Source of the DNA: a virus
UHGV virus genome: UHGV-0132465
DNA length: 64,000 nucleotides
Strand: one strand, 5' to 3'
Shown here: positions 11,179 through 57,250 of the stretch, piece after piece
Layout of the letters: every line of letters begins with the position of its first letter
Position numbering within the stretch: the first letter of the stretch is position 1
Made by a program: the position numbers and the translations under genes
The notes under the pieces: generated by a model
Told to the model about the DNA's origin: nothing
What the model saw: only the letters and a program-made list of their open reading frames with translations
Databases searched by the model: none

Positions 11179-11679
11179 GTGAAAATTAAGATCTTTGCTA
11201 TTATTTTGAGCGCATTTTTATCGCTGCCTGTTGTTGCAGCACCAAAACAAAAAGTGTATCACACCTGCAAGCCGTCTGATACTAAGGAAAACATTCTGGC
11301 ATGCAATATCTACAGGGAGGCTAGAGGGGATGGCACGATGGGTATGCTGGCATCTGGGTTTGCCACACTAAACAGGAAATCTCACCCCAAATACCCAGAC
11401 ACTATAAGAAAGATTGTCTACCAACCTAACCAGTTTTCGTGGACAAACCACGGCAAAACTTTTAAGGTGACAGAAAAAGATTCATGGGATCACGCTAAAA
11501 GTCTTGCAAAGATGCTTCTAAAGGTCTATAATAACAACCATGTTGCATACATGGCTATGGATATAACAGGTGGAGCAACACACTACCATACAACAAAAGT
11601 ACGACCGAAATGGGCAAAAAAGATGCAGAGGACAGCTCAATTCGGGAGTCATATCTACTACAAGGAGCGCAATAAATGA
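11179..11679 (+). CDS. secreted SleB/CwlJ-family cell-wall hydrolase-like protein
   Basis: N-terminal signal peptide MKIKIFAIILSAFLSLPVVAA; NIYREARGD ... NR ... QPNQFSW ... HYH pattern characteristic of Hydrolase_2; GTG start with GGAG RBS. Confidence 0.7.
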   Translation: MKIKIFAIILSAFLSLPVVAAPKQKVYHTCKPSDTKENILACNIYREARGDGTMGMLASGFATLNRKSHPKYPDTIRKIVYQPNQFSWTNHGKTFKVTEKDSWDHAKSLAKMLLKVYNNNHVAYMAMDITGGATHYHTTKVRPKWAKKMQRTAQFGSHIYYKERNK

Positions 11680-13658
11680 TTGTAAACAGCAATGAAACTA
11701 AAGCGGTGCTAACTGGGAATATGGAGGTAACCAGGGGATCAATTTCTCTGAACAAAGAGACTTTTGGGCTAATCATCAAAGGGATTTATGAAGATAAGGT
11801 ACTGGCAAGCTGCCGTGAACCGATCTTCAATGCTGTGGACTCCCATGTTGAGTCTGGACGGGGTGATGTTCCGATCATCATTCACTCCCCTACAGACCTT
11901 GAACCATACTTCTTTGTGCAGGACGTTGGATTAGGCATGTCAGAAGAGATGGTCCGCAACACCTTCATGAACCTCGGAGAGTCAACCAAGCGCAACAGCA
12001 ACGCTCTGGTAGGCAATAAAGGTGTTGGTTCAAAGGCCCCGTTCAGTATGGTGGACACTTTCGATGTAATCAGTGTGCACAACGGTGTGGAAAGCACATA
12101 CCTATTGTTCTTGGACCAGGGTATCCCAAATGTCACCAAGATCCGTGAGCGGAAGACTGAAGAGCACAATGGGGTAAAAGTTCAGTTTCATGTTAAGAAA
12201 GAGCATGTTCTGAAATATCGCACCGCTATTGCATCATGCCTGCGCTATGCAAAATTTCCGTTCACTGTCACCGATCCGATGACGAGCAAGATGCTGGAGG
12301 GGGACAAAGTAGAGGCGCAGTATTATTATGAAAAAGATGGTTGGAAGATGACCATCCTGAAGGGCTACACCAGCTCTGACGAGAGTCGTGTGGTAATGGG
12401 TCACCAACCTTATCGTTCTAAGTTCCTGGAGACACTAACAGATTATCCTGCAATTTGTGTAGAGATCCCTATCGGAGATTGCAATATTAACCCAGGGCGT
12501 GAATGGACCATAGAAGGTCACGACGATGGTGGATTCCAAGAGCGTTTGGAAGCTTTTGTCAAAGAAGGCATTCGCCTTCGTGGAGCAGAAGTTGTTGCAG
12601 AATTGGAGACAGCAAAAACATCCTCAGAAGCACGCGAGATGATGAAGAACAGCGGAGTGTTCGGGCACATCTTCGGTAAGAATTTTATGTATGACCGCTG
12701 GGAAGAAACAGGGCTAGGGAATTTGGGAGACTGCGAGATCTTCGCAGGTGGCTTAAACAAAGGCCGCATAGGCTACTCTTGTTACGGAAAGGTAGAATTC
12801 CTACGGGGAATCTATTTAGTATTTAACGACGGAGACGGAAAATACAACCGGAATAAATGTAACTACTTAAGCGAGATTACCGGACGCAACGTTTTCTATT
12901 GCCGTAACACGGATCTGGTGAAAGAGTTTAAAGAGGCGGCACACCATCCGTTTTTTGCAGATACGGTCAAATTGTTATCGGAGCTTCCACGCCGACCTAC
13001 GAAGAAAGGTGAAACCAAAACCCGTTATGAGCCCGGTTATTGGGTTAAAAAACTTGAGAAGGATGGTTACTTCCGCCGTGAGCGTATTACTAAGGCAGAG
13101 TTCAGGAAGATTAAGCACTGCATTCCTTATGAGGGAGATATTCAACGTGGAAGTTGTTGGCTGGGACAAATGAGTAACATCTACCAGCAAGATTATGACC
13201 GTGTTCGTGCGGCACTCCAGATTCCTGAAGGGGAAGACCTATACCTAGTATCGGAATCTCGCCTGCTTTGGACTGATCCTGATTGCCAGTATGTTACAGA
13301 GAAAAATGTGGAACATTTGTTGAAAGAGGATGCTTGGAAATTCTTACTAACTCGCGCAGCAAATGAAACTTCATATGACAGCCTGTACAGACAGTTAGGT
13401 AAAATTATCCCCATGCAGGATTTTGGAAATTATCGGCCACATTTCCACAAGTGGGAAGGTAGCACCACGTGGAAGTACGGTGAGCTAAATCATCGTGCCA
13501 AAATCTTAATCGCCAACCGGGTTAAGTGCGGGAAGGCCTATATTGCAAGATTGGAAAAGAAATATCCACTTTTGAAGCATGTAGGCTTGAAATATTGGGA
13601 CACTCCTGCTATGATTGAATACCGTGAACTGATTGATACAAAGAATAACATCAAATAA
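11676..13658 (+). CDS. rIIA: rIIA-like protein with N-terminal GHKL ATPase domain
   Basis: GHKL boxes NAVDS, DVGLGMS, GNKGVGSKAPF...DTFDVIS resembling T4 rIIA; immediately upstream of an rIIB homologue. Confidence 0.7.
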   Translation: MIVNSNETKAVLTGNMEVTRGSISLNKETFGLIIKGIYEDKVLASCREPIFNAVDSHVESGRGDVPIIIHSPTDLEPYFFVQDVGLGMSEEMVRNTFMNLGESTKRNSNALVGNKGVGSKAPFSMVDTFDVISVHNGVESTYLLFLDQGIPNVTKIRERKTEEHNGVKVQFHVKKEHVLKYRTAIASCLRYAKFPFTVTDPMTSKMLEGDKVEAQYYYEKDGWKMTILKGYTSSDESRVVMGHQPYRSKFLETLTDYPAICVEIPIGDCNINPGREWTIEGHDDGGFQERLEAFVKEGIRLRGAEVVAELETAKTSSEAREMMKNSGVFGHIFGKNFMYDRWEETGLGNLGDCEIFAGGLNKGRIGYSCYGKVEFLRGIYLVFNDGDGKYNRNKCNYLSEITGRNVFYCRNTDLVKEFKEAAHHPFFADTVKLLSELPRRPTKKGETKTRYEPGYWVKKLEKDGYFRRERITKAEFRKIKHCIPYEGDIQRGSCWLGQMSNIYQQDYDRVRAALQIPEGEDLYLVSESRLLWTDPDCQYVTEKNVEHLLKEDAWKFLLTRAANETSYDSLYRQLGKIIPMQDFGNYRPHFHKWEGSTTWKYGELNHRAKILIANRVKCGKAYIARLEKKYPLLKHVGLKYWDTPAMIEYRELIDTKNNIK

Positions 13659-13668
13659 GGAGACCAAG

Positions 13669-14874
13669 ATGATTTTCATCTACGAACATTTCAAAACTCG
13701 TAAAGAAGCACGTGACCGCCGTGCAGAGCTTGAGAAGAAGGGTTTCACATGCGCTATTGAGAAAGGTAACACAACCTGGACACTGGCAGTGGGTGCCCCA
13801 GAGTTGTTCGATCCTGACCGTGACAGCGTCTGCTACACCCGTGAGGATTTTGAAACCCGTGAAGAGGCCCGTTTATTTCGATATGGGCTGGAAGATAACG
13901 GTAAGTACGCCATGATCTTAGACTTAGGAGAAGGTTCCGTTAAACGTTGGAGCGTGGTATATCCACTGTGTGTTGTTCACGGTGTAGGGTTCACCGGGGT
14001 AGCAATCAAATCAGAAGAGCCTTCGGTAGAAGTCAAAGATCCGGTGCTGGAGGTGGTGAGTAGTGTGTCTCAACAACAGACCCGAAGCATCGAGCCTTTG
14101 GTGGTTATTTGCGGGGAACTCCTCCAGATCACCTGCAACGAAGGTATTTTTGAAATTCGCCGCAGTGAAAGTGAGGAAGTTTACCAGAAAGTCTTCGACC
14201 ATATCTCTGTTCAGGAATATGACGAGGCAATTGGTGAAATCCTTGTCTGGTTGGAACGCAAGAATGAGTTCACTACACTTGCAGACAACCTAATCATGAA
14301 AGATGGTAAGCTCTACTACTACGGTGTAGAGATGCGATCCACCATTGCAAAGAAAATTGAGAAAGATTATGCAGACGGAACACTGGATGACCGCTATGTG
14401 AAATTCCTCGTTCGCCTGCTACGCAATCCTTCTGCAAAATCTGTAAACATGCTCTACGATTTTATGCAGGCAAACGACATTCAGATTGCAGAAGATGGTC
14501 GAATCATTTGCTACAAAGGGGTTCAGTTTAACGGCGACAAGTGGGTGGATTGGCACAGTGGTAAAGTCCCACAATACCAGGGAGCTTTTGTATCCATGCC
14601 TCGTAACTTTGTAGAGGATGATCCGGAAGCTGCATGCTCTTATGGTCTGCACTGTGCCAGCAAAGAGTATGCAAAGAGCTACGGCACTGTGATGACGGTT
14701 ATGGTTGACCCTGCCGATGTAGTCAGTGTACCTTACCAACACAACAGCGCTAAGTGCCGTGCATGCCGCTACGAAATCGTAGTAGCTCCAGAATCGCGCA
14801 AAGATGGAGACCCAATCGAGTACGTGGTTGACCGCGACGGTAACACTATCGACATTATCTACGAGGAGGCGTAA
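13669..14874 (+). CDS. rIIB: rIIB-like protein
   Basis: C-terminal half aligns by eye with T4 rIIB (NPSAKSV..LYDF..ANDI.I.EDG, MPR..VEDDPEAACSYGLHCASKEY, VDPADVVSVP...AKCRACRYEIV); start set at RBS-preceded ATG. Confidence 0.8.
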   Translation: MIFIYEHFKTRKEARDRRAELEKKGFTCAIEKGNTTWTLAVGAPELFDPDRDSVCYTREDFETREEARLFRYGLEDNGKYAMILDLGEGSVKRWSVVYPLCVVHGVGFTGVAIKSEEPSVEVKDPVLEVVSSVSQQQTRSIEPLVVICGELLQITCNEGIFEIRRSESEEVYQKVFDHISVQEYDEAIGEILVWLERKNEFTTLADNLIMKDGKLYYYGVEMRSTIAKKIEKDYADGTLDDRYVKFLVRLLRNPSAKSVNMLYDFMQANDIQIAEDGRIICYKGVQFNGDKWVDWHSGKVPQYQGAFVSMPRNFVEDDPEAACSYGLHCASKEYAKSYGTVMTVMVDPADVVSVPYQHNSAKCRACRYEIVVAPESRKDGDPIEYVVDRDGNTIDIIYEEA

Positions 14875-16244
14875 TGGAAAAAGGGCAGTACGATGTAGGC
14901 ACAGATGCTGCCCTTGTTGCAATCATGAGTGGTGAGAATGTCTTCGTAAGCGGACCTGGTGGGACCGGGAAGACATATCTTATCAACATGATCCAGTCCA
15001 TGTATGGAGACTCTTGCATAACGGTTGCCCCGACAGGGGTAGCCGCTTTAAACGTTAATGGAGCAACAGCTCACCGAACTTTCGATCTTGCCGCAGGTGT
15101 GAGCATGGAGTCAGACTGGACAGCGATAAGGGCAAAAACAGCAAAGCCTCTGAAAAGCAAGGCATTTACCATTCTAATTATCGATGAAATCTCTATGATC
15201 CGTGCTGACAAGTTCATAGAGATGGATAGAAAACTCCGCTTTCTTCGGAAAAATGACAAACCTTTCGGAGGCATTCAGGTGCTATTGTTTGGAGATTTCT
15301 ACCAAGCACCTCCAGTTGTCTCTTCCATGGAGAAGGAAGCCTACTTCAACTTCTACCACACAGACCTGTGTTGCTATACAGAATCCTGGGAGGATCTTAA
15401 TCTTCACAACATAGCCTTAGTAGACCAGTTCCGTCAGGAATCTGTTCGCTTCGCCACAATGTTGAACTGTGTTCGTGAAGGCCGTCGCATAAAAGAGGTT
15501 GTGGCAGAGCTTAACACCCGTTGCTATCATGGTGGTGTCCCAACAGATGCCTTGACCATCTGTGCCACCAATAAGCAAGCAGAGGAGGTGAACAGACGTT
15601 TCTATGATGCCATCAAGGCCCCAGAGAGGACCTACATTGGTAAAATGAAAGGTAAGTTCCCTTCCACACTGCCTGTGGAGCAGGAAATGAGGCTGAAGAT
15701 AGGTATGAAGGTTATGATAACCTCAAACGATGTTGACCCTACTCATAAAGTTCCGTATTATGTCAACGGGACACGTGCCACAGTGGTAAAATTCAAGACC
15801 AAATCCGTGGTAGTTGAGCTAGAAGACGGAACACAGGTTGAAATTGAGCCGAGATTGTGGGAGAATAACGAGTACAAACCTTCCCAGAGGTACAATATTG
15901 CCGAAAGGAAGATGGAGAAGTTTATAGAGAGGGTTGTGATCGGATCTTATGAGCAACTTCCTTTGAAATCTGGGTACGCAGTAACATCGCATAAAAGTCA
16001 AGGACTTACGTTAGATTGTTACAACCTAGACCTCGGAAAGAACGGAGCTTTCTCTCCCGGAATGACGTATGTTGCCTTGAGTCGGGTTAAGACGATACAA
16101 GGAATAAACTTGTTGCGTCCATTAAGAGAGGTGGATATTATTGTTGACCCGAGAGTCGTAGAGTTTTATAATACAACTTTCCCTGGCTTAGACGAGAAAG
16201 TCAGGAAAGATTTTGAAACTAGAGCAGAAAAGGGGGACGTATGA
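14874..16244 (+). CDS. dda: Dda/RecD/Pif1-like SF1 DNA helicase
   Basis: Walker A SGPGGTGKTY, APTGVAA, Walker B IIDEISMI, VTSHKSQGLTLD and YVALSRVKT motifs. Confidence 0.85.
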   Translation: MEKGQYDVGTDAALVAIMSGENVFVSGPGGTGKTYLINMIQSMYGDSCITVAPTGVAALNVNGATAHRTFDLAAGVSMESDWTAIRAKTAKPLKSKAFTILIIDEISMIRADKFIEMDRKLRFLRKNDKPFGGIQVLLFGDFYQAPPVVSSMEKEAYFNFYHTDLCCYTESWEDLNLHNIALVDQFRQESVRFATMLNCVREGRRIKEVVAELNTRCYHGGVPTDALTICATNKQAEEVNRRFYDAIKAPERTYIGKMKGKFPSTLPVEQEMRLKIGMKVMITSNDVDPTHKVPYYVNGTRATVVKFKTKSVVVELEDGTQVEIEPRLWENNEYKPSQRYNIAERKMEKFIERVVIGSYEQLPLKSGYAVTSHKSQGLTLDCYNLDLGKNGAFSPGMTYVALSRVKTIQGINLLRPLREVDIIVDPRVVEFYNTTFPGLDEKVRKDFETRAEKGDV

Positions 16245-16579
16245 GTTTGTGGAGAAATATAGTTAACTACGTGTGCGGTAATCCAAATCCTGAAGAGAAG
16301 GATGTTGTGATTCACGATTTTACTAAAAGATCTCGTGAAAAAGACCTCCTGCTAACAAAGGTGATCGATAAAGACCCTATAGGGGACTGGGCAGGGTTTG
16401 CGTTTACATCTGACAAATACACCTTTAACAAAGGTGACTACCTTGTTGTGGATTTTAACGAAGACATCGAGGGTGCTGAACCTTACTATCAGACCCTTAT
16501 CGTTGCAGAGTGTGTTGAGCTCTCTGCAAACATGCATAGTTTGATTCTTTTTGAGCTTGACTCTGAAGACCTTGAGTAG
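16241..16579 (+). CDS. hypothetical protein (112 aa)
   Basis: ORF overlapping upstream stop. Confidence 0.5.
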   Translation: MSLWRNIVNYVCGNPNPEEKDVVIHDFTKRSREKDLLLTKVIDKDPIGDWAGFAFTSDKYTFNKGDYLVVDFNEDIEGAEPYYQTLIVAECVELSANMHSLILFELDSEDLE

Positions 16580-16639
16580 TAAGATGTGAGTCTAAAGGGG
16601 AGGAGTTCCTCCCCACAAAAACTAAGGAAGCACTAAACG

Positions 16640-16942
16640 ATGAAACGTTATAAACCATACACTTTTGAAATCGATTTCGAACTTGACGATATGCTTACTG
16701 TGGAGGCTCAGGCAGTTGTCCAGTTGCCAGACCCGGAGTGCCGTGATTCTGATGTTGATTATTACGGATTTAGACAAATTACCGATGTGCATGTTTACCA
16801 CAACGGTGAAGAGGTGGACTTCCACCAACTGCCAAACGATATGCGCCACTCGATTTACAAACGGGCAGCACGTGAACTAGAGTCCTATCTGGATGCAGCA
16901 ACAACAGCGGCTGCATTTGCTGAAGAGACAGGAGGTTTCTAA
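16640..16942 (+). CDS. hypothetical protein (100 aa)
   Basis: ORF with AAGGAAG RBS. Confidence 0.5.
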   Translation: MKRYKPYTFEIDFELDDMLTVEAQAVVQLPDPECRDSDVDYYGFRQITDVHVYHNGEEVDFHQLPNDMRHSIYKRAARELESYLDAATTAAAFAEETGGF

Positions 16943-17349: not shown

Positions 17350-17832
17350 ATGTCAGATTTTATGTGGAAGGTAGGTTATGCCTCTCCTGAAATGTGTGAG
17401 GCTTGCTTTGTGAAAATAGGCCGCGAGGATATTGACAAAGTGATCCTTAAGTTTCGTGATGTGTCTGTAATCGGCAACCGAGTTCTTAAGCACTTAAAGA
17501 ATCTGAAGCTCACCAAGAAGAAGTTCTTCGGACTTTTCGAAGAGAAAGTTGATGCTTGGACCCATTGCATTCAGGAAGCTAAATCTCACTACAGTGCTAT
17601 CGTTACTCCGGAACGGGTAGCCAAGATGGAAGGATTCATCAACAGCACGGAGTTTGAGTGCCTAAAGGCTGCCCTTGATAGCTATCCAAAGTGCCTCAAA
17701 CACCTTGACAAGTATGTAGAAAAGGATGGTGAAATGTATCTCACCCTAGACGCATACTATGAGATGCAAGAAATTTTAAATTTAGATTTGACATTGGTAT
17801 CTACCGAGTATACAATAGGTATCCGGGTTTAA
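17350..17832 (+). CDS. hypothetical protein (160 aa)
   Basis: ORF with AGGAGAGAG RBS. Confidence 0.5.
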   Translation: MSDFMWKVGYASPEMCEACFVKIGREDIDKVILKFRDVSVIGNRVLKHLKNLKLTKKKFFGLFEEKVDAWTHCIQEAKSHYSAIVTPERVAKMEGFINSTEFECLKAALDSYPKCLKHLDKYVEKDGEMYLTLDAYYEMQEILNLDLTLVSTEYTIGIRV

Positions 17833-17838
17833 CACTAG

Positions 17839-17865
17839 GCCCTGCCCGAAAGGGTGGGGCTTTTT
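17839..17865 (+). terminator. intrinsic terminator (GCCCTGCCC-GAAA-GGGTGGGGC + T5)
   Basis: GC hairpin with GNRA loop followed by TTTTT; identical copy at 27998. Confidence 0.7.
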
Positions 17866-17883
17866 GCATTAGGAGACAGCAAA

Positions 17884-18648
17884 TTGAAATTTATCTACAA
17901 AGAACACTACCACAAAGGTGTTGTGTGGAGTCTATTTGACGGGTCTGGTGGTGCAGTTATTGACTGGGCAAAAGCTGGGTACCTGTGCCTGTGCTTTAAT
18001 GCAGAAGGTGCTGACCACGGTAGTTATGCAGAGGTGATAACCGATCATCCTAACATTCACTATGTGGATTATTGGATTGATCCATGGTTCCCTCAAGAAA
18101 CTTTTTGCATGTATCCAGCTCCAGACTTTATTCTTGCATTTCCTCCGTGCACGCATTTAGCAGTATCCGGAGCTGCACACTTTAAGAAAAAGCTGGCTAA
18201 GGATCCTCTGATCCAAATTAATGCTGTGAAAGATGCTCGGGTTGCAGAAGAGTTGGGAGAGATTTACGATTGCCCGTGGCATGTAGAGAACCCTGTAGGA
18301 GTTATGTCAACACTGTGGCGAAAACCTGATTACCGTTTTCATCCTTCGGATTATGGCGGGTATTTACCAGAGGATGATGTAAACCCATGGTTTCCTGAAT
18401 TTATAGCTCCACGTGATGCCTACCCAAAAATAACTTGCGGTTGGATAGGTAATGGATTTATAATCCCCGCCACAAAACCTGTCCCGCAAATAGTTGATGC
18501 GGTTAGCGGTTATTCCATGCAACACGCTAAGCTAGGTGGAAAGAGTGCAAGGACGAAGATGATTCGAAGCCTTACACCACGTGGCTGGGCAAGAGCTGTA
18601 TTCTTAGCAAACGAGCCTGCAGTAAGGAGAAGAATTAATGGGCAGTAA
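17884..18648 (+). CDS. C5-cytosine DNA methyltransferase-like protein (compact, no obvious target-recognition domain)
   Basis: LFDGSGG (motif I-like), FPPC (motif IV-like Pro-Cys), HVENPVG (motif VI-like ENV) in canonical order; start proposed at TTG 17884 after AGGAG RBS because the ORF-track GTG lies in the terminator stem. Confidence 0.5.
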   Translation: MKFIYKEHYHKGVVWSLFDGSGGAVIDWAKAGYLCLCFNAEGADHGSYAEVITDHPNIHYVDYWIDPWFPQETFCMYPAPDFILAFPPCTHLAVSGAAHFKKKLAKDPLIQINAVKDARVAEELGEIYDCPWHVENPVGVMSTLWRKPDYRFHPSDYGGYLPEDDVNPWFPEFIAPRDAYPKITCGWIGNGFIIPATKPVPQIVDAVSGYSMQHAKLGGKSARTKMIRSLTPRGWARAVFLANEPAVRRRINGQ

Positions 18649-20716
18649 ATTCATGGCATCTGCATACAACCGTTTCGGTGAGCCAAACCCGAAAGCAACT
18701 AAGTATAAAAGTGGGGGAAGTGTGAAACGAGACTATCGTGATGAAAAAGAAGTTGAAACTGTAGAGACTGTTTTAGAAAATACTAAAATTGTCCCTGTTC
18801 CACAACAAAATATTGGACTGATGGCTGCACAATATTTTGGTGTACGATCATCGCTATCTCAAGAGGATGGTGTAACTGTTACTGCCACCTACTTCCCGTA
18901 TTATGACCGCTACGGTAATCTATCCGGCTTTAAAAAGCGGGACTGGACAATCCCTAAAGAGCAAAGGGGCCATTTCTCGGTTGTTGGCATAGTAAAGGCC
19001 AACTCCCAAATGTTTGGTCAAAAGCTGTGTGCATCCTCCAACAACCGTAAGCAGATTAACGTTTGTGAGGGAGAAGGTGATGTTATTGCAGCATGGCAGG
19101 CTGCATATCAGGTGCAAGTAAAAGGAATTCTCACCAATGCTAAAGCCCCAGCGAAGGTGAAGCAGTGGGCTAAAGAGGTCCAGGATGGGATCGATGCAGT
19201 TATCAACGGCGGCGATCTTGCAGGAAAACCCTGCCTACCTTTTGTTGGAATTAACTGCGGGTGTGCAAACGCAGTAGACACTTTTGCGAACAATGAGAAA
19301 TTTATCCGTAGCTACGGAACAGTGGTCCTTGCAATGGACAACGATGCAGCTAACGAGGTAGAGAAGCAAAAACACGTTATCAAAGGTGTTGAAGCCACAC
19401 ATAATATCGCAGCATTTTTGATGGCTGATAACGTTTACCACGTGGAATACCCAGGTGAGGTAAACGACCCTGATGGTGTAAAAGATATTCGTGACATGCT
19501 GAAGGCTAAAAAGCTGGAAGATATTGTCAACATGTTCCGTCACCCAGTCAAATATGTGCCTGATGCTGTATCTGATTTAGAAGACTTCTCCATTGAATCT
19601 CTTCGTAAGAAGACTTCCAATGGCGTGGATATTAGTGCAGAGTTCCCTAAACTGCAGAAGATGCTGAAAGGACTCCACAAAGGCACCTTGATGATGCTGA
19701 CAGGCCCGTCTGGCGGTGGTAAAACAACTGTAGCCAAGAAGCTGGAACATTGCATTGCAAGATACTTGATGGATCCAACATGCCCTAAAGCTGATGATTA
19801 TGAAGAGGATGATCGCCTGTGCCTGATTCACCTTGAAGAGGATCCTGAGGAAGCAATCAACTCTCTGTACGCTAACCAGCTGGGGTTTGATGTTAAAGAG
19901 TTTGTTGAAGACCCCAGTCAGTTCCTGACCGATCAGGAGCACGCTGAGATTCATCAATCTTGGGCCAAGGCCGGAAAAATCAAAGTGTTCAAGCATTTCG
20001 GCTCCATCCCTGTAGATGAGCTGATCACTAAGCTTAAACAAATGGTGTGCCTGTATCACTGCCGTTACATTGTGCTGGATCACTTGTCTATGGTGATTTC
20101 AGGGCTTAATGTTAAGGATGAGCGTAAAGAGCTTGACATGGCTATGACTCAACTAGCCGCGTTCTGTAAGCAGTTTAATGTGTTTATCTTGGTGATTGCT
20201 CACCTGAAGCGCACAGAGATTGTACCTCCGAAGGATAAGGATGGAAATCCGTTACCTTTCTGGTACCCTGTACGAAAAGAGAACCTTCGTGGTAGTGCCG
20301 GATTGGAGCAACTTAGCTGGGTGGTTGTCGGGGTAGAGGCAGAGGAGATGGTGGATCGTTCCCGTGGACGTGTCCGACTGGTAGGTCTTAAAAACCGCCC
20401 AGCAAAAACCTTAGGTATTGCAGACACTCTAGTTATGGATCCCCACACAGGCAAGTTCCATGATGCCAGCAACTGGTACTGGGACAAAGAAATGCAGATG
20501 TTTACAGACGGGGAAGGTGGGGAGGTTGTTTGGAGACCTCAGGCTATGTTTGAGGATCAGGAGCATGCAGTTGTAGAAACACCTGTAGGCAAGGTTGTGG
20601 CTGATAAGGTTATAACCCCTGCTGTTAACCCTGTTGACACACAGGAAGATCTTCAGTATGATGATCCGTCCTCTAACCACGTTCCTGGTTTTGAAGACGA
20701 CGAAACACCTTTTTAA
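18638..20716 (+). CDS. bifunctional primase-helicase (TOPRIM + DnaB-like helicase)
   Basis: TOPRIM-like CEGEGD and MDNDAANE; Walker A GPSGGGKTT; Walker B-like IVLDHLS. Confidence 0.85.
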   Translation: MGSKFMASAYNRFGEPNPKATKYKSGGSVKRDYRDEKEVETVETVLENTKIVPVPQQNIGLMAAQYFGVRSSLSQEDGVTVTATYFPYYDRYGNLSGFKKRDWTIPKEQRGHFSVVGIVKANSQMFGQKLCASSNNRKQINVCEGEGDVIAAWQAAYQVQVKGILTNAKAPAKVKQWAKEVQDGIDAVINGGDLAGKPCLPFVGINCGCANAVDTFANNEKFIRSYGTVVLAMDNDAANEVEKQKHVIKGVEATHNIAAFLMADNVYHVEYPGEVNDPDGVKDIRDMLKAKKLEDIVNMFRHPVKYVPDAVSDLEDFSIESLRKKTSNGVDISAEFPKLQKMLKGLHKGTLMMLTGPSGGGKTTVAKKLEHCIARYLMDPTCPKADDYEEDDRLCLIHLEEDPEEAINSLYANQLGFDVKEFVEDPSQFLTDQEHAEIHQSWAKAGKIKVFKHFGSIPVDELITKLKQMVCLYHCRYIVLDHLSMVISGLNVKDERKELDMAMTQLAAFCKQFNVFILVIAHLKRTEIVPPKDKDGNPLPFWYPVRKENLRGSAGLEQLSWVVVGVEAEEMVDRSRGRVRLVGLKNRPAKTLGIADTLVMDPHTGKFHDASNWYWDKEMQMFTDGEGGEVVWRPQAMFEDQEHAVVETPVGKVVADKVITPAVNPVDTQEDLQYDDPSSNHVPGFEDDETPF

Positions 20717-28820: not shown

Positions 28821-29246
28821 ATGATTTATGAAATGCCAAAACTGATTCGTGACGATGCACGAAACGCCCACACCTTTATTATGGGCAAGCGCATGGATAT
28901 TATTTGTCACAAAGACTTCTGGGAAGGGAGCTACTTCACAGAATATTTTGGAAAAATGGATGATGGCCTACTGATCCAGTTTTACACCGATGCGGAAAAC
29001 AACATTAGTTGGGAGTTCGAGACCGAAGATATCCATAAACTTTTCACCTTCCTAGACATTAAGGTTAAGGCCAAGTTTGAAGAAGGTGAGTGCGACGATT
29101 GTGGATTTTATGAGGTAACAGATTTCTATCTTCCGAGCGGTAAAAACCTTTACTATGAAAGCCACTTCGGTAACTCCAATATGCCACAGTGCTGGACTGA
29201 GTTTTTTGAAATTGTGGAAGAGGAGCTGGAATATCGTGATTATTGA
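28821..29246 (+). CDS. hypothetical protein (141 aa)
   Basis: ORF in co-oriented compact block. Confidence 0.5.
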   Translation: MIYEMPKLIRDDARNAHTFIMGKRMDIICHKDFWEGSYFTEYFGKMDDGLLIQFYTDAENNISWEFETEDIHKLFTFLDIKVKAKFEEGECDDCGFYEVTDFYLPSGKNLYYESHFGNSNMPQCWTEFFEIVEEELEYRDY

Positions 29247-29694
29247 TACTGTGGAGGGAGATTTAATCTCCCTTTTTAAGAGCGGTGCTGGTCACCTGAT
29301 CCACGGTTGTAACTGCTTCCACACAATGGGTAAGGGTGTAGCGAAACAGATTGCCCGTGAGTTCCCTCAAGCATTGGAAGCTGATAAAATGACTATGCAC
29401 GGTTGCCTAAGTAAACTGGGCGCGTTCTCCCGCTGGGAGCACTTATCTCCGAGAGGTATTGTCTACGGAATAAATCTGTATACTCAGTTCTACCCAGGGC
29501 CTAATGCTGAATATTTCTCAATACTGAAAGGCTTTGAGCGAGTCAATGAAGTATTTGAGGGGTCGATTTTACCATTCTACATCCCTAAGATCGGGTGCGG
29601 CATAGGTGGTTTGAAGTGGGAACATGTAGAGGACATTATTAACCTTGCCACTTTTGATATAGATATTATCGTGGTGGAGTACAAAGAGTGTTGA
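29236..29694 (+). CDS. TARG1/OARD1/DarG-like macrodomain protein (putative ADP-ribose hydrolase)
   Basis: GDLISLF...HGCNCFHTMGKGVAKQIAREFP and IPKIGCGIGGLKWEHVEDII align by eye with human TARG1 (GDLFA...[38 protein letters not shown]); GTG start after GGAG. Confidence 0.7.
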   Translation: MIIDTVEGDLISLFKSGAGHLIHGCNCFHTMGKGVAKQIAREFPQALEADKMTMHGCLSKLGAFSRWEHLSPRGIVYGINLYTQFYPGPNAEYFSILKGFERVNEVFEGSILPFYIPKIGCGIGGLKWEHVEDIINLATFDIDIIVVEYKEC

Positions 29695-56435: not shown

Positions 56436-56720
56436 CTACCAGGTCACTGTCAAGTAGGCAACTGTGTTATTTTTCTCCGGGGAGATGCCAACAACATCCA
56501 CCTGCAGACCTCCTGCCCTCAAATCCCCAACGATGTGTGGGAAGTAGTCTGAGAGGTGTGATGGAAGATTTATCGAAAATCCGCATCCCAGAAAGCCTGC
56601 TAACGCCTTATTTTGTATCTCCCCTACAATCGCATCATAAATGGAGTTAAGCTCGTCAGGGAGAGTTACAGGACGTTTTAGCGCTAACTGGTGCAACTTG
56701 TCCTTAGCACTCATTTTCAT
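56436..56720 (-). CDS. hypothetical protein (about 94 aa)
   Basis: start moved to MKMSAKD after GGAGG RBS to abut the upstream gene. Confidence 0.5.
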   Translation of the reverse strand: MKMSAKDKLHQLALKRPVTLPDELNSIYDAIVGEIQNKALAGFLGCGFSINLPSHLSDYFPHIVGDLRAGGLQVDVVGISPEKNNTVAYLTVTW

Positions 56721-57250
56721 TTCAAGTCTGCCTCCGGAGGTGCCAACCACATAAATGGTGGTAGGTCTAAACGGTTCTTCTTGTCCCACACAAAATATGC
56801 ATATGCTTGCCCGTCAGTTCTGCCATTCGATTGGAATGATGGACGCTTAGATATTGTGATCACAGTGGTAGGGGCATTATCAAGCCACCATTCAAATCTG
56901 GCCTTGCTTTCCAGAAAATTAAGACGCAAAAGCATAATAACTACGTCGGCATCTTTCAACGCCTTGTCCACAAACTCACGAGCCAGGCTGTACGGCGGGT
57001 TGGTGATAATACAGTCAACATGGTTGTATTCTGTATTCAGATAGTCAACACCTTCTTGGATTTCTCCCCATGCAGATCCTAACGGCATACGGGAGTAGAA
57101 CACACCTGAGGCGCTATTCCTGCAAGGCTCCAAATAGGTCCAATCTTCTGGGAACGGAATGAGGTCATACAACCCTTCTGCACACCACTCTGGTGTCACA
57201 TATTCATCATAGGCGTTACGTTGTTCGTCAGGTTTTCTAGCACAAGTCAT
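56717..57250 (-). CDS. phage Dam-family DNA N6-adenine methyltransferase
   Basis: YVTPEW...LEPC... then CIITNPPYS (NPPY catalytic motif), size about 177 aa as in small phage Dam proteins. Confidence 0.65.
   Translation of the reverse strand: MTCARKPDEQRNAYDEYVTPEWCAEGLYDLIPFPEDWTYLEPCRNSASGVFYSRMPLGSAWGEIQEGVDYLNTEYNHVDCIITNPPYSLAREFVDKALKDADVVIMLLRLNFLESKARFEWWLDNAPTTVITISKRPSFQSNGRTDGQAYAYFVWDKKNRLDLPPFMWLAPPEADLK

Follow-up and report, generated by a model that had tools for sequence, protein, structure and literature searches.

The window analysed here is a stretch of 64,000 nucleotides from the virus genome UHGV-0132465, and its open reading frame (ORF) at 17884–18648 raises the question of whether a protein with so little room for a target-recognition domain can be a C5-cytosine DNA methyltransferase. 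A second question is whether this protein, together with a putative methyltransferase encoded at 56717–57250, marks the DNA of the phage. The original prediction, made from the sequence alone, proposed a minimal C5 enzyme and dual DNA modification for restriction evasion; its observation is confirmed by our analysis, and its interpretation is partly supported. The best explanation of the data as a whole, to which we assign a probability of roughly 0.8, is that the phage encodes an orphan, S-adenosylmethionine (AdoMet)-dependent minimal Dcm-like C5 enzyme and a minimal GATC adenine enzyme, which together would mark the virion DNA. Gene structure, family, fold and catalytic residues come from our own analysis, and the evidence on formation of 5-methylcytosine (5mC), N6-methyladenine (m6A) in GATC and triggering of retrons comes from the literature on relatives; the activity, the target motif and the biological role of the C5 enzyme in the window are our inference. 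The gene in question is the following.

17884–18648, plus strand: predicted 254-amino-acid minimal Dcm-like C5-cytosine DNA methyltransferase, with motif I at residues 18–23, Cys89 (PPC), Glu135 (ENP), an R177/D178/Y180/K182 strand-loop and a motif-IX-like segment R228-SLTPRGWARAVF-240; no motif X.

The three motifs are present and in canonical order, as originally described: F18-D-G-S-G-G23, F86-P87-P88-C89 and E135-N136-P137-V138, the ENV motif reading literally ENPV with its Val replaced by Pro-Val. The PHROG 757 family ('DNA methyltransferase') matches residues 2–252, the full length of the protein, with E = 6.5e-87. More than 4,183 homologous clusters were found at 90% identity; at 50% identity and E <= 1e-3 there were 2,030 representatives, and almost every one of the top 150 has 200–260 amino acids and aligns from end to end. 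Matches to the family were found by tblastn in 1,506 deposited genomes of phages of Escherichia, Klebsiella, Salmonella and other hosts, and about 120 Vequintavirus genomes retain the gene. Existing labels for family members include 'DNA cytosine methyltransferase' and 'Dcm', with 'Dcm-like C5 cytosine methyltransferase' used in the BASEL Vequintaviruses JeffSchatz and RudolfGeigy; in the Certrevirus CB7 paper a homologue was called a cytosine methylase from HHpred alone. Conservation was assessed in a set of 73 diverse members with 32–54% identity to the window protein. Cys89, Glu135, Pro154, Tyr180, Trp187 and Pro195 are invariant in all 73, and F86, P87, T90, G96, N136, P137, D178, K182, T184, R228, S229, P232 and G234 are at least 90% conserved; at motif VI, Glu is found in 73/73, Asn in 69/73 and Pro in 72/73. 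The PHROG match, the number of homologous clusters and the invariant Cys89 and Glu135 indicate that the C5 motifs are not there by chance.

The predicted fold is of the AdoMet-methyltransferase type and nearest to known C5 enzymes, DNMT3 being the closest. The catalytic domains of DNMT3A and DNMT3B share only 13–15% identity with the window protein; DNMT3 retains motif X and acts as an oligomer with the help of DNMT3L. When the family profile was aligned by hhalign with the single sequence of HhaI (verified as 100% identical to PDB 10mh), FPPC paired with GFPC, so that Cys89 corresponds to HhaI Cys81, and ENP paired with HhaI E119-N-V, in a weak match with E = 0.098 that serves only to pair motifs IV and VI. 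The segment R228-SLTPRGWARAVF resembles HhaI RKLHPRECARVMG, which begins at R272, a pattern that was matched by eye and is unscored. The canonical enzymes (M.HhaI, M.HaeIII and E. coli Dcm, all of PF00145) and the window protein thus have in common a Rossmann-type fold and, in order, motif I, the PC loop, the ENV-type Glu and the R-x-L-x-P-R-x-x-A-R helix. The glycine-rich motif I deserves some caution. The family consensus is L-F/Y-D-x-T/S-G, so the perfect FxGxGG of the window protein is partly luck, and in close relatives with 78–80% identity (P0002, P0004, P0005) Glu or Asp replaces Gly22, which is unusual for an AdoMet-binding loop.

The experimental anchor for the family is the Dcm protein of the T1-like phage K42 (Drexlerviridae). 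Four of four K42 escapers of the retron Ec86 were mutated in or just upstream of a 711-bp dcm gene, whose expression was toxic only with Ec86 present; K42 Dcm expressed alone raised 5mC on the retron multicopy single-stranded DNA (msDNA), as measured by LC-MS (liquid chromatography coupled to mass spectrometry), and a C82A/E128A/K175A/K176A variant, with the four mutations made together and K175 treated as substrate-binding, was inactive (bioRxiv 10.1101/2023.08.16.553469). The authors modelled the protein on DNMT3A (bioRxiv 10.1101/2023.08.16.553469); later papers cite this preprint as published in Cell Rep 2024;43:114857. The Warwickvirus tunus homologue, read from an internal ATG, has a length of exactly 711 bp or 236 amino acids, with C82 in FPPC, E128 in IENP and K175-K176 in FKKTC, and the BASEL phage FritzSarasin carries the same gene, annotated under the name used in the preprint. 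The window protein is 54% identical to the tunus orthologue over 238 residues (E = 7e-87). It belongs to the same family as the K42 or KarlJaspers-type Dcm (254 compared with 236 amino acids), with C82 equivalent to C89, E128 to E135 and K175 to K182, and both model best on DNMT3. The window protein and the tunus orthologue also both have Asn at the end of strand 2 (CFN). This ribose-binding acidic position, residue 39 of the window protein, is Asp in 69/73 family members and Asn in the window's clade; Asn39 followed by an invariant D44-H45-G46 is found in 26/26 aligned members from enterobacterial phages, including the tunus orthologue, and since that is the orthologue of an active enzyme, Asn39 is probably compatible with activity. 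The two genes differ in context, the window gene lying in the replication module of a 137-kb myophage and the K42 gene in the early region of a T1-like siphophage. Judged by its alignment, the window protein is homologous to a phage C5 methyltransferase whose activity has been seen in experiments, and the proposal of a minimal C5 enzyme is supported by the PHROG 757 family, its invariant catalytic residues and this active relative.

Several points weigh against this reading. The protein does not match PF00145 even at E values up to 1, nor any NCBIfam model, and among the 73 family members only two reach PF00145 at E < 0.01. Motif X, the GNxV helix that closes the AdoMet pocket of canonical enzymes, is missing. 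So is the QxRxR of motif VIII, where the strand-loop reads R177-D178-x-Y180-x-K182 with D178, Y180 and K182 at least 94% conserved. The link to K42 Dcm runs via the tunus and FritzSarasin orthologues (gene length and four residue numbers), not via the K42 sequence, and K176 of K42 Dcm corresponds to Ile183 in the window protein. CCWGG as the target of K42 Dcm was an assumption based on the host Dcm and was probed only by msDNA site mutation (bioRxiv 10.1101/2023.08.16.553469); moreover, the loop before motif IX, the likeliest to read DNA, is GYSMQH in the window's clade and DNPGW in that of K42, so the K42 specificity may not transfer to the window enzyme. At the level of the phage, the BASEL study found Vequintavirinae exceptionally sensitive to restriction–modification (RM) systems, and we found no Vequintavirus cytosine methylome in our searches of the literature.

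Other searches of the protein were similarly weak: PADLOC gave no match, and PDB sequence searches yielded only marginal matches to DNMT3B and HaeIII over motifs I–IV (E = 1 with the single sequence, E = 0.4 with the family profile). The small space for a target-recognition domain that was noted at the outset is a property of the whole family. The slot at residues 188–227, from the last core strand to motif IX, measures 28–53 residues in the 73 members, with a median of 36, against about 100 in M.HhaI, and the chain ends 11 residues after N243 in the window protein (median 5 in the family). Relative to the canonical enzymes, the window protein is about 75 residues shorter than HhaI, has some 36 residues in place of a recognition domain of 80–100, and has neither motif X nor QxRxR. 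It thus departs from the canonical family in several formal respects but clearly keeps the fold and the catalytic residues.

The second enzyme is encoded on the other arm of the window.

56717–57250, minus strand: predicted 177-amino-acid gamma-class N6-adenine methyltransferase core, with Y17-x-T19-P20, motif I at E41-P42, D69, D79 and T83-N-P-P-Y87; no separate recognition domain.

Motif I precedes the (N/D)PP(Y/F) motif IV, and the protein is modelled with a gamma-class fold (M.TaqI / HsdM-like; predicted local distance difference test score, pLDDT, 88.6). It falls below the Pfam and NCBIfam cut-offs (EcoRI_methylase 20.1 bits against 26.4; the phage Dam family PF05869 19.2 against 28.1; TIGR01712 16.1 against 97), and Pfam gave no further Dam-type family at E values of 1 or below. 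In a set of 32 relatives, Pfam matches under the cut-offs are divided among PF05869 (12 relatives), EcoRI_methylase (14 relatives) and Eco57I. On its motifs and model, the enzyme is a gamma-class catalytic core with no recognition domain and not a member of the Dam family, to which it had been assigned (the Dam enzymes of E. coli and T4 are alpha-class); the Dam-like function fares better, since the orthologue in Bas51 makes m6A in GATC. In that Vequintavirus, an 'N6 adenine methyltransferase' triggers the retrons Asa1 and Squ1, and D69G, D79G and T83P abolish triggering; native nanopore sequencing detected GATC m6A in the phage DNA, nearly gone in T83P, and the enzyme was toxic on expression (PLoS Biol 2025, PMC12548924). 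The BASEL product name is identical for a small and a large methyltransferase gene, but Asp69, Asp79 and Thr83 occur in the small protein alone, the corresponding positions of the large one being C/K, G/T and E/F. The window enzyme, which shares the three residues, is 100% identical to Bas50 bas50_0175 with no sequence-level difference, and these two facts link it to the Bas51 trigger via the orthologue, not via the Bas51 sequence itself.

How the C5 gene would be expressed can be read from its immediate surroundings.

17788–17816, plus strand: sigma-70-like promoter TTGACA-17 nt-TACAAT (11/12 matches), within the end of the upstream ORF and annotated as P231 in rV5.
17837–17862, plus strand: GC-rich hairpin followed by a T-run, terminator-like (11 pairs, 7 of them GC), between promoter and ribosome-binding site and identical in three related phages.
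17872–17876, plus strand: Shine-Dalgarno sequence AGGAG, read from the sequence and conserved, 7 nt upstream of the TTG.
18638–20716, plus strand: primase-helicase gene, whose ATG overlaps the C5 stop by 11 nt and which has its own AGGAG at 18625–18629, 8 nt before the ATG.

The predicted ORF runs from the TTG at 17884 to the TAA at 18646–18648, and the FV3 and rV5 annotations give the gene an identical start and stop. An alternative, longer in-frame start, the GTG at 17854, lies inside the terminator-like hairpin and has no ribosome-binding site. The TTG, the Shine-Dalgarno sequence, the hairpin, the promoter-like site and the 11-nt overlap are all kept in FV3, rV5 and S127 BCL3. The overlap had been taken to suggest translational coupling with the primase-helicase; it is real and conserved, but the helicase has a ribosome-binding site of its own, which makes coupling possible and not required. 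Between 17788 and 17883 the order of signals is promoter, terminator-like hairpin, then Shine-Dalgarno sequence and TTG, and transcripts would reach the hairpin and T-run within about 15–45 nt. The effect of the hairpin could be to attenuate expression, or else to make the 5' end more stable. The arrangement resembles the 'promoter-early stem-loop' cassettes known from T4-type phages.

The canonical C5 enzymes offer an analogy for the mechanism: Cys89, in the PPC loop, would attack C6 of a flipped-out cytosine and Glu135 of ENP would protonate N3, the methyl group then passing to C5. Because the protein has neither a canonical target-recognition domain nor motif X, its reading of DNA would have to rest on short loops, namely the 155–179 insertion between the last two core strands and the segment of about 36 residues at 188–227; we speculate that a DNMT3-like oligomerisation may help recognition. 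The gene would be transcribed with the replication genes from the sigma-70-like promoter and translated from a weak TTG start, and this combination suggests that the enzyme probably methylates phage DNA during replication. The adenine enzyme, on the analogy of its orthologue, would make m6A in GATC on the same DNA. The virion DNA would thus get a narrow pattern of marks, at GATC and at a cytosine motif that is possibly CCWGG-like. Palindrome statistics of the window gave no target motif: CCWGG and GATC are neither avoided nor enriched, with observed/expected ratios of 0.93 and 0.96. As a separate observation, GGCGCC, CGATCG, GCCGGC and CGGCCG have no sites in the whole window (about 6.5, 6.6, 2.9 and 2.3 expected), and GAGCTC and CAGCTG are depleted (observed/expected 0.33 and 0.45).

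Marks of this kind would protect only against restriction enzymes sensitive to them, and the RM sensitivity of Vequintavirinae suggests that any protective value is narrow. They may also be a liability, as retrons sense such activities (Ec86/Eco1 in the case of the C5 family, Asa1 and Squ1 in that of the adenine enzyme). The proposal of dual modification for restriction evasion therefore stands as far as the two methyltransferase genes are concerned, but evasion would be at best narrow in spectrum, and both types of enzyme are known to set off abortive infection by retrons.

The strongest competing explanation is that the Vequintavirus C5 protein has little or no catalytic activity on the phage genome and serves another purpose, namely binding or acting as a decoy, regulation of replication genes, or methylating host or defence nucleic acid. 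The weak TTG start, the terminator-like hairpin between promoter and gene and the replacement of Gly22 by Glu or Asp in close relatives all fit this explanation, as does the fact that no benefit is visible against the RM systems tested in BASEL; the sole demonstrated substrate of a homologue is, moreover, retron msDNA. However, Cys89 and Glu135 are invariant and the neighbours of motifs IV and VI highly conserved across thousands of clusters, which argues for selection on catalysis, and the gene is kept in about 120 Vequintavirus genomes despite being a retron trigger in other phages. We regard this explanation as improbable.

A further alternative accepts an active enzyme but changes its product. 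The C5 enzyme could transfer a non-methyl group, for example carboxymethyl from carboxy-S-adenosylmethionine (Cx-SAM), which is made in E. coli with CmoA, or it could make 5mC as a precursor of a hypermodification. The selectivity of CmoX needs Arg350 in motif X (the position of HhaI Asn304), and candidates are defined by an SPPC motif together with that Arg, a neighbouring phage CmoA being a further mark; the window protein has no motif X and its motif IV is FPPC. The tested homologue gave 5mC by LC-MS, and none of 10 other ORFs in the window scanned with Pfam matched a family that would point to CmoA, TET or a glycosyltransferase. Restriction enzymes cut Vequintavirinae DNA readily, in contrast to hypermodified DNA. 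The CmoX/Cx-SAM version was rejected on the absence of its determinant together with motif X and on the 5mC made by the homologue, and the alternative as a whole is very unlikely.

The absence of motif X and of a canonical recognition domain, together with the tight packing of the gene between its neighbours, might also suggest that the protein represents half of a split C5 enzyme such as M.AquI or M.EcoHK31I, with a partner that supplies both missing parts. The motif-IX-like segment lies in the same chain, however, and K42 Dcm on its own increased 5mC and set off Ec86. The ORFs that precede the gene in the window and in a lambdoid prophage are not related to each other, and no neighbour is common to the lambdoid (nin region, by Dam, NinG and RusA), T1-like early, RB49-like early and rV5-like replication contexts, which argues that the C5 protein acts alone. 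With no conserved adjacent gene in any context examined, a split enzyme of the M.AquI type was rejected, and its chances are slight in the extreme. A substrate of RNA instead of DNA (m5C in tRNA or rRNA, as for DNMT2) is just as hard to maintain, because DNA enzymes rank above RNA enzymes for the C5 protein, its homologue methylates DNA, and the orthologue of the small adenine enzyme methylates GATC in phage DNA.

The 4-kb stretch around 17884–18648 shares 98.8% identity with Escherichia phage S127 BCL3 and 93–98% with FV3, rV5 and many other Vequintaviruses, with matches in 123 phage records; by nucleotide identity, the source is an rV5-like E. coli phage. Between 16 and 39 records titled 'Campylobacter phage', with the host given as C. 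jejuni (e.g. MG065690 'Campylobacter phage A135', 143 kb), share about 97% identity with E. coli Vequintaviruses or T1-like phages and are probably mislabelled or contaminant genomes. The C5 gene sits in a replication module made up of a PIF1-like helicase, small ORFs, the C5 gene, the primase-helicase and a DNA polymerase. The helicase and the ORFs before it are as follows.

11676–14874, plus strand: 660-amino-acid ORF with a GHKL-type ATPase domain (HATPase_c_3, E = 1.8e-8), then a 413-amino-acid ORF that matched nothing in Pfam and immediately precedes the PIF1-like helicase.
14874–16244: PIF1-like helicase.

Elsewhere in the window, a 179-amino-acid ORF at 29155–29694 on the plus strand has a Macro domain (PF01661, E = 2e-7) and possibly encodes an ADP-ribose-removing counter-defence enzyme.

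One gene of the relatives is missing from the window, a beta-class (DPPF) 'adenine methyltransferase' of 441–447 amino acids that is present between ORFs of 112 and 100 amino acids in rV5 (ORF235), FV3, S127 BCL3 and Bas52. The junction lies at 16579–16643, and because 16595–16643 matches both flanks of the FV3 gene, the gene is a cassette with direct repeats of about 49 bp (hairpin and Shine-Dalgarno sequence) at its edges. It is found in 87 phage records, compared with about 120 that have its flanking genes, and the phage in the window has either lost the cassette or never gained it.

The finding, though correct, is an ordinary one: annotations for both methyltransferase genes (as 'Dcm-like C5 cytosine methyltransferase' and 'putative N6 adenine methyltransferase') exist in near-identical phages, and work on relatives has shown what such enzymes do. 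The finding's wider meaning lies in the family. PF00145 and NCBIfam miss a cytosine methyltransferase family of about 1,500 sequenced phages, and automated pipelines consequently often label it hypothetical. How an enzyme with neither motif X nor a recognition domain binds its cofactor and chooses its site is structurally unexplained. We speculate, while thinking it rather doubtful, that such a family must build its AdoMet pocket and read DNA unlike any solved C5 methyltransferase, possibly as a DNMT3-like dimer using the 155–179 and 188–227 loops, and that the Vequintavirus clade (GYSxQH, not DNPGW) may methylate a motif other than CCWGG. Both methyltransferases are of types that serve retrons as a signal of infection; this is relevant to the host range of those rV5-like phages that are candidates for use in therapy and biocontrol. 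If the cytosine motif does differ from CCWGG, it would be a mark not yet described, which may protect against a specific restriction enzyme or be sensed by a different defence system.
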